From sequence record PP766721.1: a stretch of 39,500 bases of DNA, one strand, 5' to 3'. Below the pieces are notes generated by a model that was not told the origin of the DNA, did not search any database, and saw only the letters and a list, made by a program, of their open reading frames with translations. A program made the position numbers and the translations under genes. The stretch's first letter is position 1; the number at the start of each line of letters is the position of its first letter. This DNA is from Escherichia phage Baskent_phicoli_1. Shown one piece after another: positions 17,145 through 39,500 of the stretch.

Positions 17145-19301
17145 ATGTCCACGATTACACAATTCCCTTCAGGAAACACTCAGTACAGGATTGAGTTCGA
17201 CTACCTAGCCAGAACGTTTGTTGTTGTTACGCTGGTGAATAGCTCTAACCCTACCCTGAACCGTGTACTGGAAGTTGGTAGAGATTACCGATTCCTTAAT
17301 CCAACGATGATTGAGATGTTGGTTGACCAATCAGGTTTCGACATCGTTCGTATTCACCGTCAGACTGGAACTGACTTAGTGGTAGACTTCAGGAATGGCT
17401 CAGTGTTGACAGCTAGTGACCTGACCAATGCAGAGCTTCAGGCTATCCATATTGCAGAGGAAGGTCGAGACCAAACTGTTGACTTAGCGAAGGAATATGC
17501 TGATGCTGCTGGCAGCTCTGCTGGCAACGCTAAGGATAGCGAGGACGAAGCACGACGAATCGCTGAGAGTATCAAGGCAGCTGGTCGCTTTGGCTATATT
17601 ACCCGTCGCTCCTTCGAGAAAGGCTTCAACGTTACAACATGGAACGAGGCCCTGCTATGGGAAGAGGATGGTGATTATTACCGCTGGGATGGTACGCTTC
17701 CAAAGAACGTTCCTGCTGGTTCAACTCCTGAAGCGTCTGGTGGTATTGGTCTTGGTGCGTGGGTTAGCGTTGGTGACGCATCATTACGAGCCGATTTGTC
17801 GTCAAAAGATGGGATGGAATTAATAGGAGGCGACCTTAAATCATACGGAGCAGATGCTTCTGGGTCAACTCCATGTGACAGCCAACTTTCACAAATGCTA
17901 GCTGATAAAAAATTCATAGTTAACTCTGGAACTTACTTAATAACATCTACTATTGAGGTGGACATTTCCTCACTTGAATATGTAGAAGTTGGTCCTGATG
18001 TTGAATTTATCATTAAAAGCAACATTAATGGTTTCATATTTAAGAATCCGAATGCTAATTTCGACGCTAACGGTATGCGTATAACCGTAGACATCCCCGG
18101 AGGTGGATACACAAGTACAGCACTAACCTTAAGGGGGGGTAAATATTACACTGGGCCTGCTAACTTTAGCCGGTTATCCCATAAGAATAAATTTGGACCA
18201 TTTTACGTATACAACAGACAGGGTGCCGTTAAGCAAGAGTCAGCGTCTGCTCCTGTTACCGATGAGGGGTACGGCTTCTCTATAGACTGCAACTCAGCAG
18301 GTGAAGAAATTCTGATATGGAACGAAGTTGATGTCTCATCCACCGGGTTTACTGTTGCTCATGCAATTGGCGTAGGAACCAATCCACTTAACTTTATTTC
18401 ATCTCTTGACCTTAAGTTGGTATCCTGGTTCAGTACATATCACTTCAGGGACACCAGTATCCCGAAATCTGGCGGCAACGTAGCTGGGGGAATTGGGGAT
18501 GTGCGTGTGCGATTACAATCACAACCTCACGCTCAGATGGTTAAAGTTGTGCATATGGAGCACGCACCTGGCTTCATGAGTGGTTGCCGATTTGACCTGT
18601 CAATCTGGGACCCTAACGCCTATGGATATACCGCGAACGTGGTCGATGCATCCGTGACGAACGAATATACAAATACTATGGAGCGGAAAGCATATCCGTT
18701 AACTCGAGTGTTGAACATGGTAGATGGTAGTATATTCCCGGTCGTGAATTACACCAGTAGCATCCAGCAGTCTGATATACTTTCCAGTAGTGACCCTGAA
18801 CTGGCTAAGTACCTGTACCTATCAACTGTAACGCCAGAAATGACAGTGTTACAAGCATGTAACGCTATTAAAACATGGTGTAACGAAAATAACATCCGTA
18901 ATAATTTTGAATTCAAAGTGTTTTTAGGAGACTCTACCGCCGACATACGTAACGTTTTTCTCCCGTGGATAACAGCTATAGGTGACTCCTCAGGATACTT
19001 ACATCTATATGCTACTTTTTACAATGGAATTATAAATACAGTGCGTGTCGAGTACGAGGTTAATCCGATAACCAGCGGCGGAAAGACAGAAAAACACGAA
19101 ATATTATGGACAAACACAACAGGTCTTGTGTTGCATCGCCTGATTGAGTACTCATTCGGTACCACGGCTGAGATAAAAAGCAAGGTAGCCATACAAGTGA
19201 AAGGCTTCACTACTTTTGACTCAACTTTCAACATCCCTGTTTGGTATAATGGCAATAGTTCATGGCTTAAAGCAGACGGTTCTGTGGCATATTCTGCTTA
19301 A
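17145..19301 (+). CDS. gp17: Tail fiber / tailspike: T7 gp17-like N-terminal adaptor fused to a large C-terminal domain (putative polysaccharide depolymerase)
   Basis: 718 aa; N-terminal about 150 aa (FDYLARTFVVVTL, LVVDFRNGSVLTASDL, QAIHIAEEGRD) match T7 gp17; linker WxSVGDASLRADLSSKDG is typical of tailspike beta-helix starts; C-terminal region is visibly AT-rich. Confidence 0.88.
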   Translation: MSTITQFPSGNTQYRIEFDYLARTFVVVTLVNSSNPTLNRVLEVGRDYRFLNPTMIEMLVDQSGFDIVRIHRQTGTDLVVDFRNGSVLTASDLTNAELQAIHIAEEGRDQTVDLAKEYADAAGSSAGNAKDSEDEARRIAESIKAAGRFGYITRRSFEKGFNVTTWNEALLWEEDGDYYRWDGTLPKNVPAGSTPEASGGIGLGAWVSVGDASLRADLSSKDGMELIGGDLKSYGADASGSTPCDSQLSQMLADKKFIVNSGTYLITSTIEVDISSLEYVEVGPDVEFIIKSNINGFIFKNPNANFDANGMRITVDIPGGGYTSTALTLRGGKYYTGPANFSRLSHKNKFGPFYVYNRQGAVKQESASAPVTDEGYGFSIDCNSAGEEILIWNEVDVSSTGFTVAHAIGVGTNPLNFISSLDLKLVSWFSTYHFRDTSIPKSGGNVAGGIGDVRVRLQSQPHAQMVKVVHMEHAPGFMSGCRFDLSIWDPNAYGYTANVVDASVTNEYTNTMERKAYPLTRVLNMVDGSIFPVVNYTSSIQQSDILSSSDPELAKYLYLSTVTPEMTVLQACNAIKTWCNENNIRNNFEFKVFLGDSTADIRNVFLPWITAIGDSSGYLHLYATFYNGIINTVRVEYEVNPITSGGKTEKHEILWTNTTGLVLHRLIEYSFGTTAEIKSKVAIQVKGFTTFDSTFNIPVWYNGNSSWLKADGSVAYSA

Positions 19302-19403: not shown

Positions 19404-19598
19404 ATGATTGAGTTAGACTTCAAGAATGAGGTCCTTAAAGCCTCTCCTATCGTCGGGACCGCTGCGGCTGATGGTGCCAGTCGGTTCTTCTTCGGACTTA
19501 CACTGAACGAATGGTTCTACGTTGCAGCTATCGCGTACACCGTTGTCCAGATTGGTGTGCTAGTCTACAAAACGATTAAAGGAGGTGGTAAAACATGA
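19404..19598 (+). CDS. gp17.5: Holin (T7 gp17.5 homolog)
   Basis: 64 aa; LDFxNExxKAxPIVGT...FFGLxLNEWFYVAAIAYTVVQIG nearly identical to T7 gp17.5. Confidence 0.92.
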   Translation: MIELDFKNEVLKASPIVGTAAADGASRFFFGLTLNEWFYVAAIAYTVVQIGVLVYKTIKGGGKT

Positions 19599-19858
19599 CG
19601 CAGATGGACTTAGAGAAGTTCCTCTTAATGCTAGATACTGAACGTGCTCGACTCATGCTGAAAGACCTGCGGGATGACTCTAAGCGTTCACCTCAGCTCT
19701 ACAACGCCATTGAGAAGCTGCTTGCTCGTCACAACTTTGTGTTAAGCAAGGTGTCTGTGGACGAGAAGACGCTGGCTGATATGGAGGCCCTGAACGCAGA
19801 GTACGATAAGGTGCTTTCAGCGACTGAGGATAATGACACCGGGTATGGTGTTCAATAA
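19595..19858 (+). CDS. gp18: Terminase small subunit (DNA maturase A), gene 18
   Basis: 87 aa, ATGA-coupled to holin; position and size as T7 gp18 (89 aa). Confidence 0.85.
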   Translation: MTQMDLEKFLLMLDTERARLMLKDLRDDSKRSPQLYNAIEKLLARHNFVLSKVSVDEKTLADMEALNAEYDKVLSATEDNDTGYGVQ

Positions 19859-19959: not shown

Positions 19960-20403
19960 ATGCTCGAATTTTTAAAGAGAGCGGCTCCGTGGTTACTTGC
20001 AGCAGTGATGTTTGCTGGTGGCTACCACACCGCTAACAATAAGTGGGAGGCTAAGATCAATGCAGAATACACCTCGAATCTTAAGGCATCGGAAGATACA
20101 AGGCTTGCTGTCCAAGCTGAAGTCAACAAAGTGTCCAAACGGTTTCAGGACGAAATGTCCTCGCTGGAAGGCAGCACTGATAGGATTATTGCTGACCTTC
20201 AGTCTGACAATAAGCGGCTGCGCATCAGAGTCAAACCAACGAGTGGAACCACGCAAAGTGACGGTCGATGCGTCATTGATGATTACGCCGAACTTGACGA
20301 ACGAGATGCTAAACGTCTTATCGCCATCGGAGTGAAAGGAGACAAGTGGATTAAGGCCCTTCAGGACACTGTGAGAGCCTTGCAGCAAGATAGGGGGGAG
20401 TAA
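19960..20403 (+). CDS. gp18.5: Rz-like i-spanin, gene 18.5
   Basis: 147 aa; N-terminal TM helix, EGSTDRIIxDLxSDNKRLRxRVK and DxRDAKRxxAxxxKGDxWIxALQDT match T7 gp18.5. Confidence 0.9.
   Translation: MLEFLKRAAPWLLAAVMFAGGYHTANNKWEAKINAEYTSNLKASEDTRLAVQAEVNKVSKRFQDEMSSLEGSTDRIIADLQSDNKRLRIRVKPTSGTTQSDGRCVIDDYAELDERDAKRLIAIGVKGDKWIKALQDTVRALQQDRGE
20060..20335 (+). CDS. gp18.7: Rz1-like o-spanin lipoprotein embedded in +1 frame of gene 18.5
   Basis: PRWKxALIGLxL...ISGCASES lipobox and PNLTxEMLNV C-terminus match T7 gp18.7; start at internal ATG 20060 inferred. Confidence 0.7.
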   Translation: MQNTPRILRHRKIQGLLSKLKSTKCPNGFRTKCPRWKAALIGLLLTFSLTISGCASESNQRVEPRKVTVDASLMITPNLTNEMLNVLSPSE

Positions 20404-20569: not shown

Positions 20570-22333
20570 TTGAGTAAAGACTTAGTGGCGCGTCAGGCGC
20601 TAATGACTGCCCGTATGAAGGCAGACTTCGTGTTCTTCCTGTTCGTCCTGTGGAAAGCTCTGTCGCTCCCAGTCCCGACTCGCTGTCAGATTGACATGGC
20701 GAAGAAACTATCGGCTGGGGACAACAGGCGCTTCATCCTGCAGGCGTTCCGTGGTATCGGGAAGTCCTTCATTACGTGTGCCTTCGTTGTCTGGAAGCTA
20801 TGGAACAACCCAGACTTGAAGTTCATGATTGTGTCGGCCTCAAAGGAACGAGCCGATGCTAACTCCATCTTCATCAAGCGAATCATCGACCTCATGCCTC
20901 AGCTTCAGGAACTCAAACCTAAGCAGGGACAGCGAGATGCGGTTATCAGCTTCGACGTTGGACCAGCCAAGCCCGACCACTCACCTTCGGTTAAGTCCGT
21001 TGGTATCACTGGTCAGTTGACTGGTAGTCGTGCTGACATCCTGATTGCCGATGACGTGGAGGTCCCTAACAACTCAGCGACTCAGGCTGCACGAGACCGT
21101 CTGTCAGAGCTTGTGAAAGAGTTCGACGCTATCCTGAAGCCGGGAGGTACAATCATCTATCTGGGTACTCCTCAGAACGAGATGACCTTGTATCGTGAGC
21201 TGGAAGGCCGTGGATACACCACTACTATCTGGCCTGCTCGTTATCCACGCGATAAGAAGGACTGGCAGTCTTACGGCGACCGTCTGGCACCGATGCTTCA
21301 GGCAGAGCTGGAAGAGGACCCTGAGTCCTTCTACTGGCGTCCGACTGATGAAGTACGCTTCGATGATACGGACCTGAAGGAACGTGAGCTGTCCTATGGT
21401 AAAGCTGGCTTCGCTCTACAGTTCATGCTTAACCCGAACCTTAGTGATGCCGAGAAGTACCCTCTGAAGCTCCGTGACCTTATCGTAGCAGACTTGGACC
21501 CAGCGTCCAGCCCAATGGTCTACCAATGGCTGCCAAACCCTCAGAACAAGCGTGAGGACGTCCCTAACGTTGGACTCATGGGTGACTCATACCACACGTA
21601 TCAGACTGTAGGTTCTGCCTTCAGTTCGTACACCCAGAAGATTCTGGTCATTGACCCTAGTGGTCGTGGTAAGGATGAAACTGGCTATGCGGTACTGTAC
21701 CAGCTCAACGGCTACATCTTCGCTATGGAAGTTGGTGGTATGCGTGGTGGTTATGAAGACTCTACGCTGGAAGCTCTGGCTAAGATTGGTCGTAAGTGGA
21801 AGGTCAACGAATACGTCATTGAGGGTAACTTCGGTGATGGTATGTACCTTGAGCTATTCAAGCCCGTAGCAGCCCGTATCCACCCTGCTGCTGTAACTGA
21901 AGTGAAGAGTAAGGGTCAGAAAGAACTCCGCATCTGTGACGTTCTGGAGCCTATCATGGGGTCTCACCGACTTATCGTTAACGCTGCTGCTATCGTCCAA
22001 GACTACCAGTCGGCCTCTGATAAGGATGGTGTTCGTAACCCTATCTACTCTCTCTTCTACCAGATGACACGTATCTCTCGTGAACGTGGAGCCTTGGCAC
22101 ACGATGACAGACTTGATGCGCTGGCTATCGGTGTACAGTTCTTCGTTGAGTCTATGGCTAAGGATGCCAACAAAGGCGAACGTGAAGTCACTGAGGAGTG
22201 GCTGGAGGAACAGATGGAGAACCCACGGAAAGGCTTCGAGTCCATCCACACTGAGTTCTGGGACAATGGGGTCCGGGTAACTCACGATACGGACGACGAG
22301 CTGGGGCTAGGGTCCTACGTTACGTTTCACTAG
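20570..22333 (+). CDS. gp19: Terminase large subunit (DNA maturase B), gene 19; apparent TTG start
   Basis: 587 aa; [23 protein letters not shown], [76 protein letters not shown], [25 protein letters not shown] essentially as in T7 gp19; AAGGAGG SD 7 nt before TTG. Confidence 0.97.
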
Positions 22334-22427
22334 CTGAATGAATAACTATGGGTGAAAGCTGCATGAATACGCAGTTAGTAACCTATGGTTACAACCAGGC
22401 TAACCTACTGTTTTATAAGAAGTTTGG

Positions 22428-22450
22428 ACTTAACTATCACTATAGGGAAG
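22428..22450 (+). promoter_or_regulatory. Phage RNAP promoter (phiOR-like), +1 G about 22445
   Basis: CTTAACTATCACTATAGGGAAG downstream of terminase gene. Confidence 0.75.
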
Positions 22451-22630
22451 ACCCCCGGTTACTTATAGTATTACTGTAGTGAATATACATATGCAGACTT
22501 TATGCAAGACCTTAGGAGGCAGACTCCGAGTTCTTACCTAAGGCTTGCACCGATGGAAGGAGGGTGATATTAATAATAATCCCTCCAATACAGATAGTCA
22601 CCGACCATAGATACAGGAGGTATGTAGCAT

Positions 22631-22789
22631 ATGGCAAAGACCAAAGCTGTACTTAAAGCTCTGGCGACCAATCGAGCTACATACAGGTTTCTTGCTGCTG
22701 TTCTACTTGCTGCTGGCGTTACTGCTGGAAGTAAGTGGGTCGGGTGGGTCGAGACTCTCGTATGTTCTCTGGTGTCTGAGTGTCATTAA
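22631..22789 (+). CDS. gp19.5: gp19.5 homolog (small membrane protein)
   Basis: 52 aa ORF below the ORF-track cutoff; RxTYRFL, hydrophobic core and SLESVVCS-like end resemble T7 gp19.5; AGGAGG SD. Confidence 0.65.
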   Translation: MAKTKAVLKALATNRATYRFLAAVLLAAGVTAGSKWVGWVETLVCSLVSECH

Positions 22790-22949
22790 CGCCATAATGG
22801 TAACAATCAACGAAAGTAAGACCTAAGGTCAGTTCATAGCTGACGCTACTCTACTGACCTTAGCTACTGTAGTCAAGGACTTTAGGTAACACCTTAAGAG
22901 AAGCTCACTTAGGGTCATCCTACTTATTGGTCTATCCTAGTGTCGCCTG

Positions 22950-22987
22950 ACCTACGGTCCTTGACCTACAGTGGCTGTGGCCTACAG
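22950..22987 (+). repeat. CCTAC(G/A)G heptamer repeats just inside the inferred right genome end
   Basis: CCTACGG...CCTACAG...CCTACAG read directly; analogous to T7 CCTAAAG repeats near the terminal repeat. Confidence 0.55.
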
Positions 22988-23026
22988 TAGTGACGATGAG
23001 TTTTGGACCAAAAGTTTGAGACCACA

Positions 23027-23210
23027 TCTCACAGTTCAAGAACCTCAAGTCTCCCCATAGGCCCTCTTTCAGTCCAGACCAAAGGCCCTACCCAGTCTAT
23101 CATAAGGTTGGACCGATGGTCAAGACTTCAGGTCAACGATAGGTTGAGGCTATGGCTGGAGGTCGGGACGATAGGTTGGGACTATGGGTCTGTCTCTGAG
23201 TCTCTATCTG
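23027..23210 (+). repeat. Inferred left genome end and direct terminal repeat (collapsed to one copy here)
   Basis: TCTCACAGTTCAAGAACC...CCCCATAGG matches the T7 left end TCTCACAGTGTACGGACC...CCCCCATAGGGGG; the 3' boundary of the repeat is a guess. Confidence 0.45.
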
Positions 23211-23240
23211 TATAGTGTTATAGTATAACATTACGTCCTA

Positions 23241-23310
23241 CACCTACAGTCTCACTACCTACAGTCTCCGACCATGAGACACTCACTACCTACAGTCATA
23301 GACCTACAGA
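23241..23310 (+). repeat. Array of four (A)CCTACAG(T) heptamer repeats downstream of the terminal repeat
   Basis: ACCTACAGTCTC, CTACCTACAGTCTCC, CTACCTACAGTCAT, GACCTACAGATAA read directly. Confidence 0.6.
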
Positions 23311-23422
23311 TAATAGACATAAAGCTATAGACTTAAGGTCTAAGACATGTTAGTCAAAAGACTACATCCTCTTACACCATGGGGCCGACGATAGCTTAAT
23401 TAATATTATTTCAAATTACCTA

Positions 23423-23452
23423 TTGACTATAGGTCTAGACTGTGGCTTAATA
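23423..23452 (+). promoter_or_regulatory. Host sigma70-type early promoter (A1-like)
   Basis: TTGACT at 23423-23428, 17-bp spacer, CTTAAT; AT-rich UP-like tract upstream; T7 A1 also has TTGACT. Confidence 0.55.
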
Positions 23453-23563
23453 GCTTCCGTCAACACGACACGGCAACAACCGGATAGTGAAGACGCCGGG
23501 TCATCCCGGTTAAGTAGACAGCCTGATAAGTCATACGAACAACAGGCAGATGACAGAAAGTAG

Positions 23564-23593
23564 TTGACAAGCAGTAACGACTTAAAGTAGTAT
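23564..23593 (+). promoter_or_regulatory. Host sigma70-type early promoter (A2-like)
   Basis: TTGACA at 23564-23569, 18-bp spacer, TAGTAT; flanks match the T7 A2 region (ACAGGxxTTGACAA). Confidence 0.6.
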
Positions 23594-23711
23594 GTACCAC
23601 GTAGCAAGATGGCGTAGGGATAGGAACCGAGAAACCTGCCAGAGGCCAGCCAAGGATAAGGCACCAGCCGTGAGTCGAATTCGGTCACTCACCGCATAAA
23701 AGAATAACAGG

Positions 23712-23740
23712 TTGACAGCCTCCTTTAAAAGCTGTAAGCT
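23712..23740 (+). promoter_or_regulatory. Host sigma70-type early promoter (A3-like)
   Basis: TTGACA at 23712-23717, 17-bp spacer, TAAGCT; downstream CCACATCGAAACGACGGTGA matches T7 A3 context CCACATGAAACGACAGTGA. Confidence 0.6.
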
Positions 23741-23941
23741 GTGCCACATCGAAACGACGGTGAAGCCTAACACTGAAACAGGCTAGCACGGCGACGACAG
23801 CCAATGCGAATGCTCTTTAACAATCTGGATAAACTCTTAATGTGCGCCGATAGCGACTAACTACAGGGTCTTTGAGTCTACATCTGAAGGCCCTGACTGA
23901 TAGTCACTAACATACACAAACAACTTTGAGAGGATATAACT

Positions 23942-24277
23942 ATGGAACGTAACGCTAACGCATACTATGAGCTGCTGGCTGCAACCGTTGAAGCATTTAA
24001 CGAGAGCATTCAGTACGACAAAATAGCTGAAGGTGATGACTACAGCGATGCGCTGCATGAAGTCGTAGACAGTCATGTTCCGCACTATTACCACGAGATT
24101 TTCACGGTGATGGCTGCTGATGGTATTGACCATGAGTTCGAAGACTCTGGGCTGATGCCTGAGACCAAGGACGTAACGCGTATACTACAAGCTCGCATTT
24201 ATGAAGCACTGTATAACGATGTATCTAATAGCTCGGATGTAGTCTGGTTCGAGTCTACTGAGGAGGAATGCGAGTGA
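23942..24277 (+). CDS. ocr: Ocr (gene 0.3) DNA-mimic anti-restriction protein
   Basis: 111 aa, very acidic; VPHYYxxIFxVMAxxGIDxEFEDSGLMPxTKDVxRILQARIYE nearly identical to T7 Ocr. Confidence 0.92.
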   Translation: MERNANAYYELLAATVEAFNESIQYDKIAEGDDYSDALHEVVDSHVPHYYHEIFTVMAADGIDHEFEDSGLMPETKDVTRILQARIYEALYNDVSNSSDVVWFESTEEECE

Positions 24278-25799: not shown

Positions 25800-28481
25800 A
25801 TGAGCGTCATCTCTATTGACAAACACGACTTCTCTGATGTGTCAAACGCCATTGAGCCGTTTAACCTGCTGGCCGACCACTACGGGCAAGACCTTGCAGT
25901 CAAACAGCTTCAGCTTGAGCATGAGGCATACACTGAAGGCGAGCGACGTTTCATCAAAAACCTTGAGCGACAGACTGAGCGCGGGGAACTGGCAGACAAT
26001 CAGGTCGCCAAGCCTTTGATGCAGACTCTGGTTCCTAAGATTGCGCAAGCCGTCAGGGAGTGGCACGAAGGTCCAGACGGGAAGCTGTCAACCTCTCGTC
26101 CGAGCGTAGCGTTCACCATGTTGAGCACTGAAGAGAAGGCCGTCAAGGACCGCTCTATGCGTATCTCCTGTGAGTCTGCTGCGGTCATCATACTGAAGGT
26201 CATACTCTCCAAGCTGGTCAAGCCTGAAGGTATACCGATTACACCGATGGCCTCAGCGATAGGTCGCACACTTGAGGACGAAATCCGCTTCGGTCGCATC
26301 CGTGACAAGGAGAAGGAGCATTTCAAGAAGGCGATAGCTGAGAACTTGAACAAGCGAGCTGGGGTATCCTACAAGAAAGCCTACATGCAAGCTGTCGAGG
26401 CATCCATGCTGGAGCAAGGCCAACTGGAAGATGCATGGGGAACTTGGAGTCCGACCGAGGCTGTCCACGTTGGAATCAAGATGCTTGAGATCGTCATCCA
26501 GTCAACACAGCTGGTCGAGCTTAAGCGTTATGGTGCTGGCAATGCAGCAGCTGACGTCGAGATGGTCCACCTGACAGACTTCTGGGTCAAGAAGATGGCA
26601 CAACGAGGATTCAGCCTTGCGGGTATCGCTCCAGTCTACCAGCCTTGCGTAGTTCCACCTAAGCCGTGGACTGGTGTAGTGGGAGGTGGATACTGGGCCA
26701 AAGGTCGCAGACCGTTGCCATTGATTCGCTTAGGGTCTAAGTCTGCGGTGGCACGTTATGAAGACGTATACATGCCTGAAGTCTATGACGCTGTGAATAT
26801 CATCCAGAATACACCTTGGAAAGTGAACAAGAAGGTTCTGGACGTGGTGAACATGGTCGAGAAGTTGAACAACACGCCTATTGATGACATCCCTCAGATG
26901 GAGCCACTGAAGCCTGAAGACTATGCGGGCGAGACTGAAGAGGAACTCAAGGCATGGAAGAAAGCTGCTGCTGGTATCTACCGCCGAGAGAAGGCCCGGC
27001 AGTCACGCAGATTGTCACTAAGCTTTATCGTCAACCAAGCGAACAAATTCTCTCAGTTCAAGGCCATCTGGTTCCCGTACAACATGGACTGGCGCGGACG
27101 CGTCTACGCTGTTCCGATGTTCAACCCTCAGGGTAACGACATGCAAAAAGGGCTCCTTACTCTGGCAGTCGGCAAGCCCATTGGTGCCGATGGTTTTAAA
27201 TGGCTGAAGGTCCACGGTGCAAACTGCGCGGGTATTGATAAAGTCACCTTCGAGGAGCGCATCAAGTGGGTGGAAGACAACCACGACAACATCATGGCTG
27301 CTGCTAAGGCACCGATGGACAGCATTGAGTGGTGGGGAAAGTTAGACTCTCCATTCTGCTTCCTAGCGTTCTGCTTCGAGTATGCTGGCGTAATGCACCA
27401 CGGATTGTCTTACTCCTGCTCGCTGCCGATAGCGTTCGATGGGTCATGCTCTGGGATTCAACACTTTAGCGCGATGCTTCGTGATCACATCGGTGGACAT
27501 GCAGTAAACCTGACGCCTTCAGGTAAGGTCCAAGACATCTACCGCATCGTGTCTGACCGCATTGAGGAAGAGCTTAAAGTCCTGCTGGTTAAGGGCACGG
27601 ACAACGAGGTGGTCACTCACGAGGACAAGAAAACTGGTGAGATTACCGAACGTCTCAAGCTGGGGACACGAGAGCTGGCCCGTCAGTGGCTGACTTACGG
27701 TATGTCACGCAAGGTCACTAAGCGCTCAGTCATGACTCTGGCCTACGGGTCGAAAGAGTATGGCTTCGCAGACCAAGTTTACGAGGACATCGTGATGCCA
27801 GCGATTGACTCAGGGTCTGGCGCTATGTTCACCGAACCAAGCCAAGCGTCCCGCTTCATGGCTAAGATGATTTGGGAAGCTGTGAGCGTGACCGTAGTTG
27901 CTGCTGTTGACGCGATGAAGTGGCTTCAGGGTGCTGCCAAGCTGCTGGCTGCTGAAGTGAAGGACAAGAAGACTGGAGAAATCCTGAAGCCTTGCCTTCC
28001 GGTACACTGGGTCACACCTGATGGTTTCCCTGTCTGGCAGGAATACCGCAAGAAGGATACCACTCGTCTGAACCTGATGTTCTTAGGGTCATTCAACCTT
28101 CAACCTACGGTCAACAAGGGCACGAAGAAAGAGCTGGACAAGCACAAGCAGGAGTCAGGCATTAGCCCGAACTTCGTCCACTCACAAGATGGGAGCCACC
28201 TACGCAAGACTGTAGTCCACACTCACCGCAAGTATGGTGTTATGTCATTCGCAGTGATTCACGATAGCTTCGGGACCATCCCGGCTGACGCTGAGTATCT
28301 GTTCCGTGGTGTCCGTGAGACGATGGTCGAGACCTACCGCGACAACGACGTGCTGCTTGACTTCTACGAGCAGTTCGAATACCAGCTTCATGAGAGCCAG
28401 CGCGACAAGTTGCCCGAGCTTCCGAAGAAAGGTAAACTGAACATCGAAGACATTCTGTCTTCAGACTTTGCATTCGCTTAA
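25800..28481 (+). CDS. gp1: Single-subunit DNA-dependent RNA polymerase, gene 1
   Basis: 893 aa; collinear with T7 RNAP throughout (NxAKxDFSD, PFNxLADHYG, FPYNMDWRGRVYAV, MFNPQGNDMxKGLLTLA, DGSCSGIQHFSAMLRD, VTKRSVMTLAYGSKE, VHWVTPDGFPVWQEY, HKQESGIxPNFVHSQDGSHLRKTV, IHDSFGTIPADA, FAFA C-terminus). Confidence 0.98.
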   Translation: MSVISIDKHDFSDVSNAIEPFNLLADHYGQDLAVKQLQLEHEAYTEGERRFIKNLERQTERGELADNQVAKPLMQTLVPKIAQAVREWHEGPDGKLSTSRPSVAFTMLSTEEKAVKDRSMRISCESAAVIILKVILSKLVKPEGIPITPMASAIGRTLEDEIRFGRIRDKEKEHFKKAIAENLNKRAGVSYKKAYMQAVEASMLEQGQLEDAWGTWSPTEAVHVGIKMLEIVIQSTQLVELKRYGAGNAAADVEMVHLTDFWVKKMAQRGFSLAGIAPVYQPCVVPPKPWTGVVGGGYWAKGRRPLPLIRLGSKSAVARYEDVYMPEVYDAVNIIQNTPWKVNKKVLDVVNMVEKLNNTPIDDIPQMEPLKPEDYAGETEEELKAWKKAAAGIYRREKARQSRRLSLSFIVNQANKFSQFKAIWFPYNMDWRGRVYAVPMFNPQGNDMQKGLLTLAVGKPIGADGFKWLKVHGANCAGIDKVTFEERIKWVEDNHDNIMAAAKAPMDSIEWWGKLDSPFCFLAFCFEYAGVMHHGLSYSCSLPIAFDGSCSGIQHFSAMLRDHIGGHAVNLTPSGKVQDIYRIVSDRIEEELKVLLVKGTDNEVVTHEDKKTGEITERLKLGTRELARQWLTYGMSRKVTKRSVMTLAYGSKEYGFADQVYEDIVMPAIDSGSGAMFTEPSQASRFMAKMIWEAVSVTVVAAVDAMKWLQGAAKLLAAEVKDKKTGEILKPCLPVHWVTPDGFPVWQEYRKKDTTRLNLMFLGSFNLQPTVNKGTKKELDKHKQESGISPNFVHSQDGSHLRKTVVHTHRKYGVMSFAVIHDSFGTIPADAEYLFRGVRETMVETYRDNDVLLDFYEQFEYQLHESQRDKLPELPKKGKLNIEDILSSDFAFA

Positions 28482-31921: not shown

Positions 31922-32080
31922 ATGAGTGACGCCGAGAAGAAATACATCGTTGAGCTTGAGGGCCGCACTCAGTACTTCGAGGTTCCTGTGTACGCAAAGT
32001 CTCTTGAAGAGGCTACCCTGAAGTCCCAAGAGTATGAGGACGCTGGGTTTGTGGTCGGACGGATTCGTCCTGAGACCTAA
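31922..32080 (+). CDS. gp2: Host RNA polymerase inhibitor gp2 homolog
   Basis: 52 aa ORF below track cutoff; [13 protein letters not shown]...[10 protein letters not shown] matches T7 Gp2 FEVPIYAETLDEA...AGFEVTRVRP; AAGGAG SD. Confidence 0.75.
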
Positions 32081-32098
32081 ACTATCACTGTAGGACAG
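32076..32098 (+). promoter_or_regulatory. Phage RNAP promoter variant (phi2.5-like), +1 G about 32093
   Basis: TAAACTATCACTGTAGGACAG (G at -3). Confidence 0.6.
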
Positions 32099-38959: not shown

Positions 38960-39165
38960 GTGAATACTTACGGGTCCTAGCGGCCCTTAAGTCCTGCCCG
39001 AAGACCTTCCAGTCCAACTATGTGCGCAACAACGCTGCACTTGTGGCTGAGGCTGCGAGTCGTGGACATCTGAGCTGCCTGTCTACGGATGGGCGTAACA
39101 ATGGTGCGTGGGAGATTACCGCCGAAGGCGTTAAGTTCCTGAACAAACATGGAGGCTGTCTATAA
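38956..39165 (+). CDS. gp5.7: gp5.7 homolog (host RNAP/sigma-S associated inhibitor in T7)
   Basis: 69 aa; MSEYLRVLAALKSCPKTFQSNYVRNNAALVAEAASRGHLSCL...GAWEITAEG...GGC nearly identical to T7 gp5.7. Confidence 0.88.
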   Translation: MSEYLRVLAALKSCPKTFQSNYVRNNAALVAEAASRGHLSCLSTDGRNNGAWEITAEGVKFLNKHGGCL

Positions 39166-39500
39166 TGACCGAGTGTACCCGTTGGACTGGCTATTTCCTA
39201 TCTAATGGGTATGGTCAGATAAAGAAATCTGGCGTCAAGTGGCTGGCTCATCGTCTGATTTACACCGAGAACTTCGGTCCAATCCCGGATGGTCTGGTAG
39301 TCAGGCATAAATGCGACAACCGTTGGTGCGTTAACCCTGAGCACTTAGAGCTTGGGACTCAGCGTGATAACATAAACGACTGCGTTACCCGTGGTCGTCA
39401 CAATAACGCCAAGCTGTCAGACCAGCAGGTCCGTGAAATCCGAAAGGATAAGCGTAGCTCCCGTGCTGTAGCGGCTGACTATGGCATTGACCATAAGGGC
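39165..39500 (+). CDS. HNH homing endonuclease, 5' portion (continues at window start; full gene 384 nt / 127 aa)
   Basis: ATG overlaps gp5.7 stop (TAATG); MTECTRWTGYFLSNGYGQIKKSGVKWLAHRLIYTENFGPIPDGLVVRHKCDNRWCVNPEHLELGT... Confidence 0.85.
   Translation, partial: MTECTRWTGYFLSNGYGQIKKSGVKWLAHRLIYTENFGPIPDGLVVRHKCDNRWCVNPEHLELGTQRDNINDCVTRGRHNNAKLSDQQVREIRKDKRSSRAVAADYGIDHKG

Follow-up and report, generated by a model that had tools for sequence, protein, structure and literature searches.

The stretch of DNA analysed here, which we call the window, is 39,500 nucleotides long and carries the genes of a T7-type phage in the T7 order: tail fibre, holin, small terminase, Rz, large terminase, gene 19.5, junction, ocr and RNA polymerase (PHROG assignments). 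The junction region lies in the non-coding interval that separates gene 19.5, the last of the late genes and the one after terminase gene 19, from gene 0.3, the first of the early genes, in a genome collinear with T7. Both the small and the large terminase genes are encoded, as the T7/T3 class of packaging signals requires (PHROG); the gene 18 homologue is presumed to be the recognition protein for the packaging signal, and the gene 19 homologue is presumed to cut the genome ends. The coordinates of all these features are collected in Table 1.

The locus, its promoters and the assembly

Regarding the identity of the phage, a 25-kb query against deposited phages found Kayfunavirus records to be the closest, with around 94% identity over around 88% of the query, and therefore, judging by sequence similarity, the phage is a new relative within this known genus. 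The window has a period of 39,248 bp, since its first 252 bases are found again at 39249-39500, a single mismatch apart (127 C vs 39374 A; scripted self-comparison), and this overlap bears out the unit length of 39,248 bp claimed by an earlier sequence-only reading of this DNA. The window is thus the circularly permuted assembly of a Kayfunavirus, K1F-like and belonging to the T7 group.

The mismatch in the overlap may reflect variation in the population, or a mistake in assembly or polishing. It alters DNI(H/N)DC in an ORF that resembles HNH homing endonucleases, as judged by eye from the translation, and that runs over ~39163-39500 and continues into 253-~300. The neighbours of this ORF are a gene 5.7-like ORF and a 288-aa ORF at 301-1167, both named from the T7 gene order. 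The closest relatives do not have the HNH-like ORF, their matches beginning at about query position 304-307, and it is probably a mobile insertion.

Between the two terminal genes, an ORF at 23003-23215 was considered as a gene across the repeat and rejected: it had no PHROG match and its conservation is not codon-like. Small ORFs were also called across 22932-23231, and these are spurious.

The phiOR-like site upstream of the junction fits the window's own 9-copy promoter consensus, CT(A/T)AACTATCACTATAGG, and its position agrees with those of T7 phiOR and K11 phiOR. Downstream, the three early host-type promoter candidates were read from the sequence, and the consensus scan passed only the one at 23564; a layout of three early promoters is also found in T7 and T3. 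We rejected CTATAGG at 23427 as a phiOL-type promoter, because it matches only 9/15 consensus positions and overlaps the TTGACT -35 box of the first early candidate. Far from the junction, at ~32076-32094 (+), CCTAAACTATCACTGTAGG departs from the phage promoter consensus at one base (CTGTAGG for CTATAGG).

Table 1. Positions of the genes, signals and repeats around the junction (window numbering unless another genome is named)
Feature	Position	Strand	Details
Tail fibre	17145-19301		PHROG assignment/gene order
Holin	19404-19598		PHROG assignment/gene order
Gene 18 homologue, small terminase subunit	19595-19858	+	PHROG 1351 'terminase small subunit', E = 1e-34
Rz-like spanin	19960-20403		PHROG assignment/gene order
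Gene 19 homologue, large terminase subunit (ATPase/nuclease)	20570-22333	+	PHROG 38 'terminase large subunit', E = 8e-132
Phage RNA polymerase promoter, phiOR analogue	22425-22450	+	between genes 19 and 19.5; points rightward to the junction
Gene 19.5 homologue, final gene of the genome	22631-22789	+	PHROG 2193, E = 4e-24; counterpart named gene 19.5 in the CR44b record
Nearly invariant block	22818-23070	+	~210 bp of unique right-end DNA, with the three upstream heptamers, and first 45 bp of the repeat
Perfect 11-nt inverted repeat	22823-22833 / 22853-22863		CTAAGGTCAGT / ACTGACCTTAG; 19-nt spacer; ~30 nt after gene 19.5
Imperfect 26-nt inverted repeat	22862-22887 / 22950-22976		upstream heptamers face inverted copies (CTGTAG, CTTTAGG)
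Upstream heptamer array	22951-22987	+	CCTACGG 22951, CCTACAG 22965, CCTACAG 22981; 76, 62 and 46 bp before the left end
Predicted direct terminal repeat, 179 bp	23027-23205 (right edge 23204-23209)	+	alignment to K1F, SH3, Penshu1, EPr2, Midid, CR44b
ATCTGTA, counterpart of the T7 class II pause signal ATCTGTT	23206-23212	+	adjoins the right edge of the repeat
Downstream heptamer array, (A)CCTACAG(T)	23243-23309	+	copies at 23243, 23258, 23289, 23303; scripted motif search
Early host-type promoter candidates, T7 A1-A3 analogues	23421-23745	+	-35 boxes: TTGACT 23421, TTGACA 23564, TTGACA 23712
Gene 0.3 homologue (ocr-like anti-restriction), first gene of the genome	23942-24277	+	PHROG 2568, E = 1e-53
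Single-subunit RNA polymerase	25800-28481		PHROG assignment/gene order
Equivalent inverted repeat, T7	39568-39608		669-709 in sequence L007
Equivalent inverted repeats, sequences L038, L039, L040	275-315; 335-379; 240-280		

The predicted terminal repeat and its two cut sites

The octamer TCTCACAG occurs once on the + strand, at 23027-23034 (scripted search of the window), and it is identical to the first 8 bases of T7 DNA, as the sequence-only reading had stated. The second element which that reading placed shortly after the octamer was also found: CCCCATAGG is present once, at 23053-23061, and T7 carries CCCCCATAGGGGG in the equivalent place.

A 214-bp query containing the candidate repeat matched 228 phage records. 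The match begins at base 1 of the record in Penshu1, YZ1, yong1 and phiYIO1-1, and no more than 2 bases from the record start in GA2A, KM02, CR44b and TM1, while in Midid, Emlis, Bia and Mt1B1_P3 it runs to the last base on the opposite strand. Pairwise mapping placed base 1 of K1F, SH3, Penshu1 and EPr2 at window position 23027, and base 1 of YZ1 likewise, so that homology puts the physical ends in the interval where they had been proposed.

Regarding the length of the repeat, comparison of head and tail in complete linear records gave exact repeats of 178 bp in K1F, 179 bp in Midid and 160 bp in T7. The Penshu1 repeat, called by PhageTerm, is 179 bp, the same length as that annotated in EPr2. 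The ends of SH3 were determined by run-off sequencing of phage DNA, giving a repeat of 183 bp, and the K1F repeat is cited as 179 bp (PMC4925675). The repeat of the window is therefore homologous to repeats whose ends come from experiment or from reads (K1F, SH3 by run-off, Penshu1 by PhageTerm, and EPr2). When the annotated right boundaries of the relatives are transferred to the window, they fall at 23204 (K1F record), 23205 (Penshu1 and EPr2), 23206 (CR44b) and 23209 (SH3), a spread of 6 bases in which 23205 is the commonest position. The Midid repeat also stops at the equivalent of 23205, at ...CT^ATCTGTA (here and below, ^ marks the cut). Several linear IMG/VR genomes of the group end with ...GAGTCTCT, 179-191 bp past the start of TCTCACAG, and permuted IMG/VR contigs carry CT^ATCTGT at the same distance of 179-191 bp. 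Of the repeat first placed at about 23027-23210, the left edge thus stands and the right edge is refined to 23205. From these alignments we predict that the mature left end begins with base 23027 and that the mature right end finishes with base 23205 (23204-23209).

The window holds a single copy of the candidate repeat. Assemblies of T7-like phages are documented to collapse the terminal repeat to one copy, often midway along the contig (PMC10438801), and the suggestion that this had happened here agrees with both facts. The virion DNA would then be ~39,427 bp long (39,248 + 179), beginning with TCTCACAG and ending with approximately ...GAGTCTCT. The placement of the physical ends and of the doubled repeat is supported by homology.

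The region could instead be an intergenic regulatory region only, with the physical ends elsewhere or not fixed at all, as in headful packaging. The assembly does look circular, and its 252-bp overlap sits in another part of the genome; however, that overlap (1-252) falls in the HNH endonuclease ORF and not at a packaging site. Furthermore, identity between the region and the ends of relatives whose termini have been determined is 85-98%, terminase and gene order are both those of a T7-type phage, and the maturation cleavage of T3 and T7 is sequence-specific (PMC3185743). We therefore consider this explanation very improbable.

Some other observations were made within the repeat. It contains a 20-nt direct repeat, ACGATAGGTTG(A/G)G(G/A)CTATGG, at 23136-23155 and 23168-23187. 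On the - strand, from 23123 to 23094, there is a leftward sigma-70-like site (TTGACC, an 18-nt spacer and TAGACT, with TG), which recalls the leftward A0 promoter annotated within the T3 repeat; this part of the repeat is poorly conserved. The EPr2 record (OM256482.1, a Providencia phage) carries two annotated copies of the 179-bp repeat at its left end (1-179 and 501-679), with gene 19.5-like sequence after the first of them. The end of this record is probably misassembled or mis-oriented.

Both cut contexts are conserved across T7, T3, phiYeO3-12, K11, K1F and the window, that is, in four genera. The consensus of the left cut is AAA(A/G)TyTGAG...A^TCTCAyAGT, the window having CAAAAGTTTGAGACCACA^TCTCACAGTTCA and T7 TAAAAATCTGAGTGACTA^TCTCACAGTGTA. 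As in the other five genomes, the left end of the window (23003-23038) starts with TCTCA(C/T)AG and is preceded by AAA(A/G)T.TGAG......A. The consensus of the right cut is TCTCTG(A/T)GTCyCT^ATCTGT, with TCTCTGAGTCTCT^ATCTGTA in the window and TCTCTGTGTCCCT^ATCTGTT in T7; in a comparison of window positions 23194-23212 with six reference genomes, ...TC(C/T)CT was directly followed by ATCTGT. The boundary shared by T7, T3, phiYeO3-12 and K11 is ...CCCT^ATCTGTT.

The heptamer that adjoins the right edge, ATCTGTA, is invariant in 15/15 Kayfunavirus junctions aligned, and T7, T3, phiYeO3-12 and K11 have ATCTGTT at the equivalent place, which the K11 record labels 'concatemeric junction'. ATCTGTT is the class II pause/termination signal at the T7 concatemer junction (bioRxiv 10.1101/2021.01.11.426313; bioRxiv 10.64898/2026.02.12.705533), and the pause of the polymerase-lysozyme complex at this junction has been linked to the start of packaging (PMC3276506). 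The T7 class II (CJ) signal is defined strictly as ATCTGTT on the non-template strand, after A, C or T, with the pause 6-8 nt downstream, and the window, with T-ATCTGTA, differs from it at the seventh base. The T7 polymerase reportedly tolerates no base change in ATCTGTT, any change abolishing the effect (bioRxiv 10.1101/2021.01.11.426313), and therefore pausing by the polymerase of this phage is putative. Since the variant ATCTGTA does not change within Kayfunavirus, it may be a signal adapted to the polymerase of this lineage.

Heptamer arrays, conservation and inverted repeats

The repeat is flanked by heptamers of the CCTNNAG type in the same orientation, three copies upstream and four downstream, with counterparts in T7, T3, K11 and K1F. 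The sequence-only reading had described clusters of CCTAC(A/G)G on both sides, and actually all seven + strand copies of the region lie inside the two intervals that it gave, 22950-22987 and 23241-23310; position 23237 has a near-copy, CCTACAC. The most frequent 7-mer in the region is CCTACAG, whose extended unit is ACCTACAGT(C). Tandem Repeats Finder reported only weak arrays of 2-2.5 copies, the heptamers being interspersed and not strictly tandem.

Genome-wide, CCTAC(A/G)G occurs 18 times on the + strand, compared with the 4.3 copies expected from composition or from a first-order Markov model. Outside the junction, another 11 + strand and 10 - strand copies are dispersed over coding regions, and these copies elsewhere in the genome showed no association with promoters or intergenic regions. 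Each of the motifs is short, and such scattered copies could suggest that both the T7-like octamer and the heptamer cluster match by chance. However, 7/18 of the + strand copies are packed within ~360 bp, whereas 300 simulated first-order Markov genomes never gave more than 2 in any 370-bp window. Moreover, both the heptamer and the octamer are conserved in the relatives, and the alignment to the termini of these relatives extends well past the short motifs. The probability that we give to chance is consequently negligible.

In order to describe the conservation of the region, 15 junction sequences, 69-94% identical to the window, were aligned over 680 bp. The 20 bases at 23025-23044, which were used to fish the IMG/VR loci, are conserved by construction, and the rest of the alignment is free of this bias. 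Conservation is concentrated at both boundaries of the repeat. Almost all the columns of 22818-23070 are identical across the 15 junctions, which makes this block a candidate terminase recognition region (pacB-like), as far as sequence conservation can indicate it. A second invariant island, at ~23190-23212, spans the right boundary. The variable parts are the interior of the repeat (23090-23150) and the stretch just right of the boundary (23213-23240). The palindrome TGTTATAgTATAACA, at 23217-23231, was rejected as a processing element, because it is not conserved in the relatives.

The two heptamer arrays behave differently in this alignment. The upstream copies are found within 2 bp of the same offsets (-76, -62 and -46) in 14/15 junctions, the remaining one, L018, keeping the first two only. 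In the downstream array the heptamer itself is conserved, with 2-7 copies and a spacing of ~15 or 30 bp.

The flanking repeat also differs among genera: CCTAAAG in T7, CCTAAAG and CTTAAAG in T3 and phiYeO3-12, ACCTGAG in K11 and CCTACAG in Kayfunavirus. In T7 there are eight copies at 175-332, to the right of the repeat, two at 39671 and 39700, to its left, and three inside it. The analogy with the T7 arrays that had been drawn from the sequence is thus sound in layout, and on sequence grounds the CCTAC(A/G)G arrays appear as the genus-specific version of the CCTAAAG arrays. Their part in concatemer processing is assumed from this analogy.

The heptamers might have no role in end processing, being by-products of slippage or recombination, or serving genome entry, replication or the binding of host factors. 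The range of 2-7 downstream copies argues against a strict requirement for copy number, and both the number and the spacing of these copies vary freely among close relatives. The change of the heptamer from genus to genus points the same way, and in the accessible literature we found no source demonstrating that heptamers have a processing role, or are required for processing, in any T7-group phage. Nevertheless, the three upstream heptamers hold their sequence and position within the most conserved block of the region, and same-orientation arrays flank the repeat in four genera despite the sequence drift, which argues for selection tied to the junction. We regard heptamers without any part in processing as possible, although we rather doubt it.

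Two inverted repeats lie in the conserved block. The centre of the perfect one (22823-22863) is 184 bp to the left of the left-end cut, and T7, T3, phiYeO3-12 and K11 have an equivalent inverted repeat ~30 nt past gene 19.5 and 145-210 bp before the repeat. These four share its sequence (AGGGATTC...CATCCCT), whereas that of the K1F-like phages is unrelated. The imperfect one does not vary among the 15 relatives, and a similar pair, of 23 nt, is present in K11. Single-strand folding of 22810-23030 gave z = -3.3 vs shuffles, and an Rfam scan of 22300-24100 at E <= 1 found no RNA family. Chung, Nardone and Hinkle (J Mol Biol 1990) reportedly described a hairpin intermediate left of the T7 junction, of which two packaging reviews make no mention. 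The positional parallel between this intermediate and the inverted repeat of the window is suggestive, no more.

The concatemer junction and its counterparts in other phages

With the repeat, the cut contexts and the arrays taken together, we are highly confident that 22818-23320 is the concatemer junction of a K1F-like (Kayfunavirus) phage of the T7 group, whose linear genome was circularised by the assembler. The homology, the boundaries found by alignment, the conservation pattern and the non-random heptamers are features of the region itself, and from them we infer all the functional steps by homology, on the model of T7 and T3. In concatemers there is one repeat per junction and the second copy is made during maturation (PMC10438801); gp18 recognises PacB and gp19 cleaves PacC (PMC9860248).

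Following this model, the phage RNA polymerase would start at ~22434, at the phiOR-like site, read through gene 19.5, the conserved block and the repeat, and pause at or just after ATCTGTA, beyond the repeat. The gp18 and gp19 terminase, bound on the conserved block, would cut at ~23205/23206 and package leftward. The repeat would be copied, so that one copy stays with the neighbouring genome, and another specific cut, at 23026/23027, would produce the next left end. The heptamer arrays would most likely be reiterated protein-binding or structural elements that help the processing complex to assemble.

A further proposal, which we hold to be unlikely, is that the K1F lineage co-evolved its junction signals (ATCTGTA, to which the T7 polymerase would not respond, the CCTACAG array and the unrelated but positionally conserved hairpin) with its own enzymes. 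The junction would then be a specificity module against cross-packaging between co-infecting T7-group genera, and the near-fixed upstream heptamers, together with their inverted partner (the imperfect 26-nt repeat of Table 1), would form the recognition structure of gp18.

The feature is an ordinary, textbook property of T7-group phages, already described for K1F-like phages, to which the window adds one member, and the current understanding of T7-group biology is unchanged. For annotators, it suggests re-orienting the contig to start at 23027 and appending 23027-23205 at the right end, which would bring the contig to the predicted genome length of ~39,427 bp. The comparison adds that the cut contexts are kept in four genera, that the upstream heptamers are near-fixed and the downstream ones variable, and that the position of the hairpin is kept and its sequence is not. 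This picture may be useful for designing transducing particles or rebooted genomes of K1F-like therapeutic phages.

Among the known systems, the closest are those of the K1F group. K1F, SH3, Penshu1, CR44b and Midid have the same first bases as the window, TCTCACAGTTCAAGAACCTCAAGTCTCCCCATAGG, and the group shares the 24 bases before the left cut, the right boundary GAGTCTCT^ATCTGTA, the three upstream heptamers and a repeat of ~179 bp. The junction region of K1F itself is ~89% identical to that of the window, and differs in the interior of the repeat and in the downstream array: both have four downstream copies of CCTAC(A/G)G, at offsets of +37 to +97 in the window and +67 to +128 in K1F. The palindrome at 23217-23231 is present in the window and not in K1F.

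T7 shares with the window its first 8 bases, the later CCCCATAGG element, the right boundary ...CT^ATCTGT, the same-orientation heptamer arrays on both sides, phiOR upstream and three early host promoters downstream. It likewise has an inverted repeat, centred ~185-190 bp left of the terminal repeat, although the sequence of this inverted repeat is unrelated to that of the window. The two phages differ in the length of the terminal repeat (179 bp in the window, 160 bp in T7), in the heptamer (CCTACAG, with none inside the repeat, compared with CCTAAAG, with three inside) and in the pause motif (ATCTGTA compared with ATCTGTT). Furthermore, unlike T7, the window has no phiOL-type phage promoter between the repeat and the first early promoter, according to the consensus comparison.

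T3 and phiYeO3-12 (Teetrevirus) and K11 (Przondovirus) conserve both cut contexts and have flanking repeats of the CCTNNAG type, in variants that differ from the heptamer of the window. The repeat is 231-232 bp long in T3 and phiYeO3-12, whose left end is TCTCATAG, and 180-181 bp in K11.
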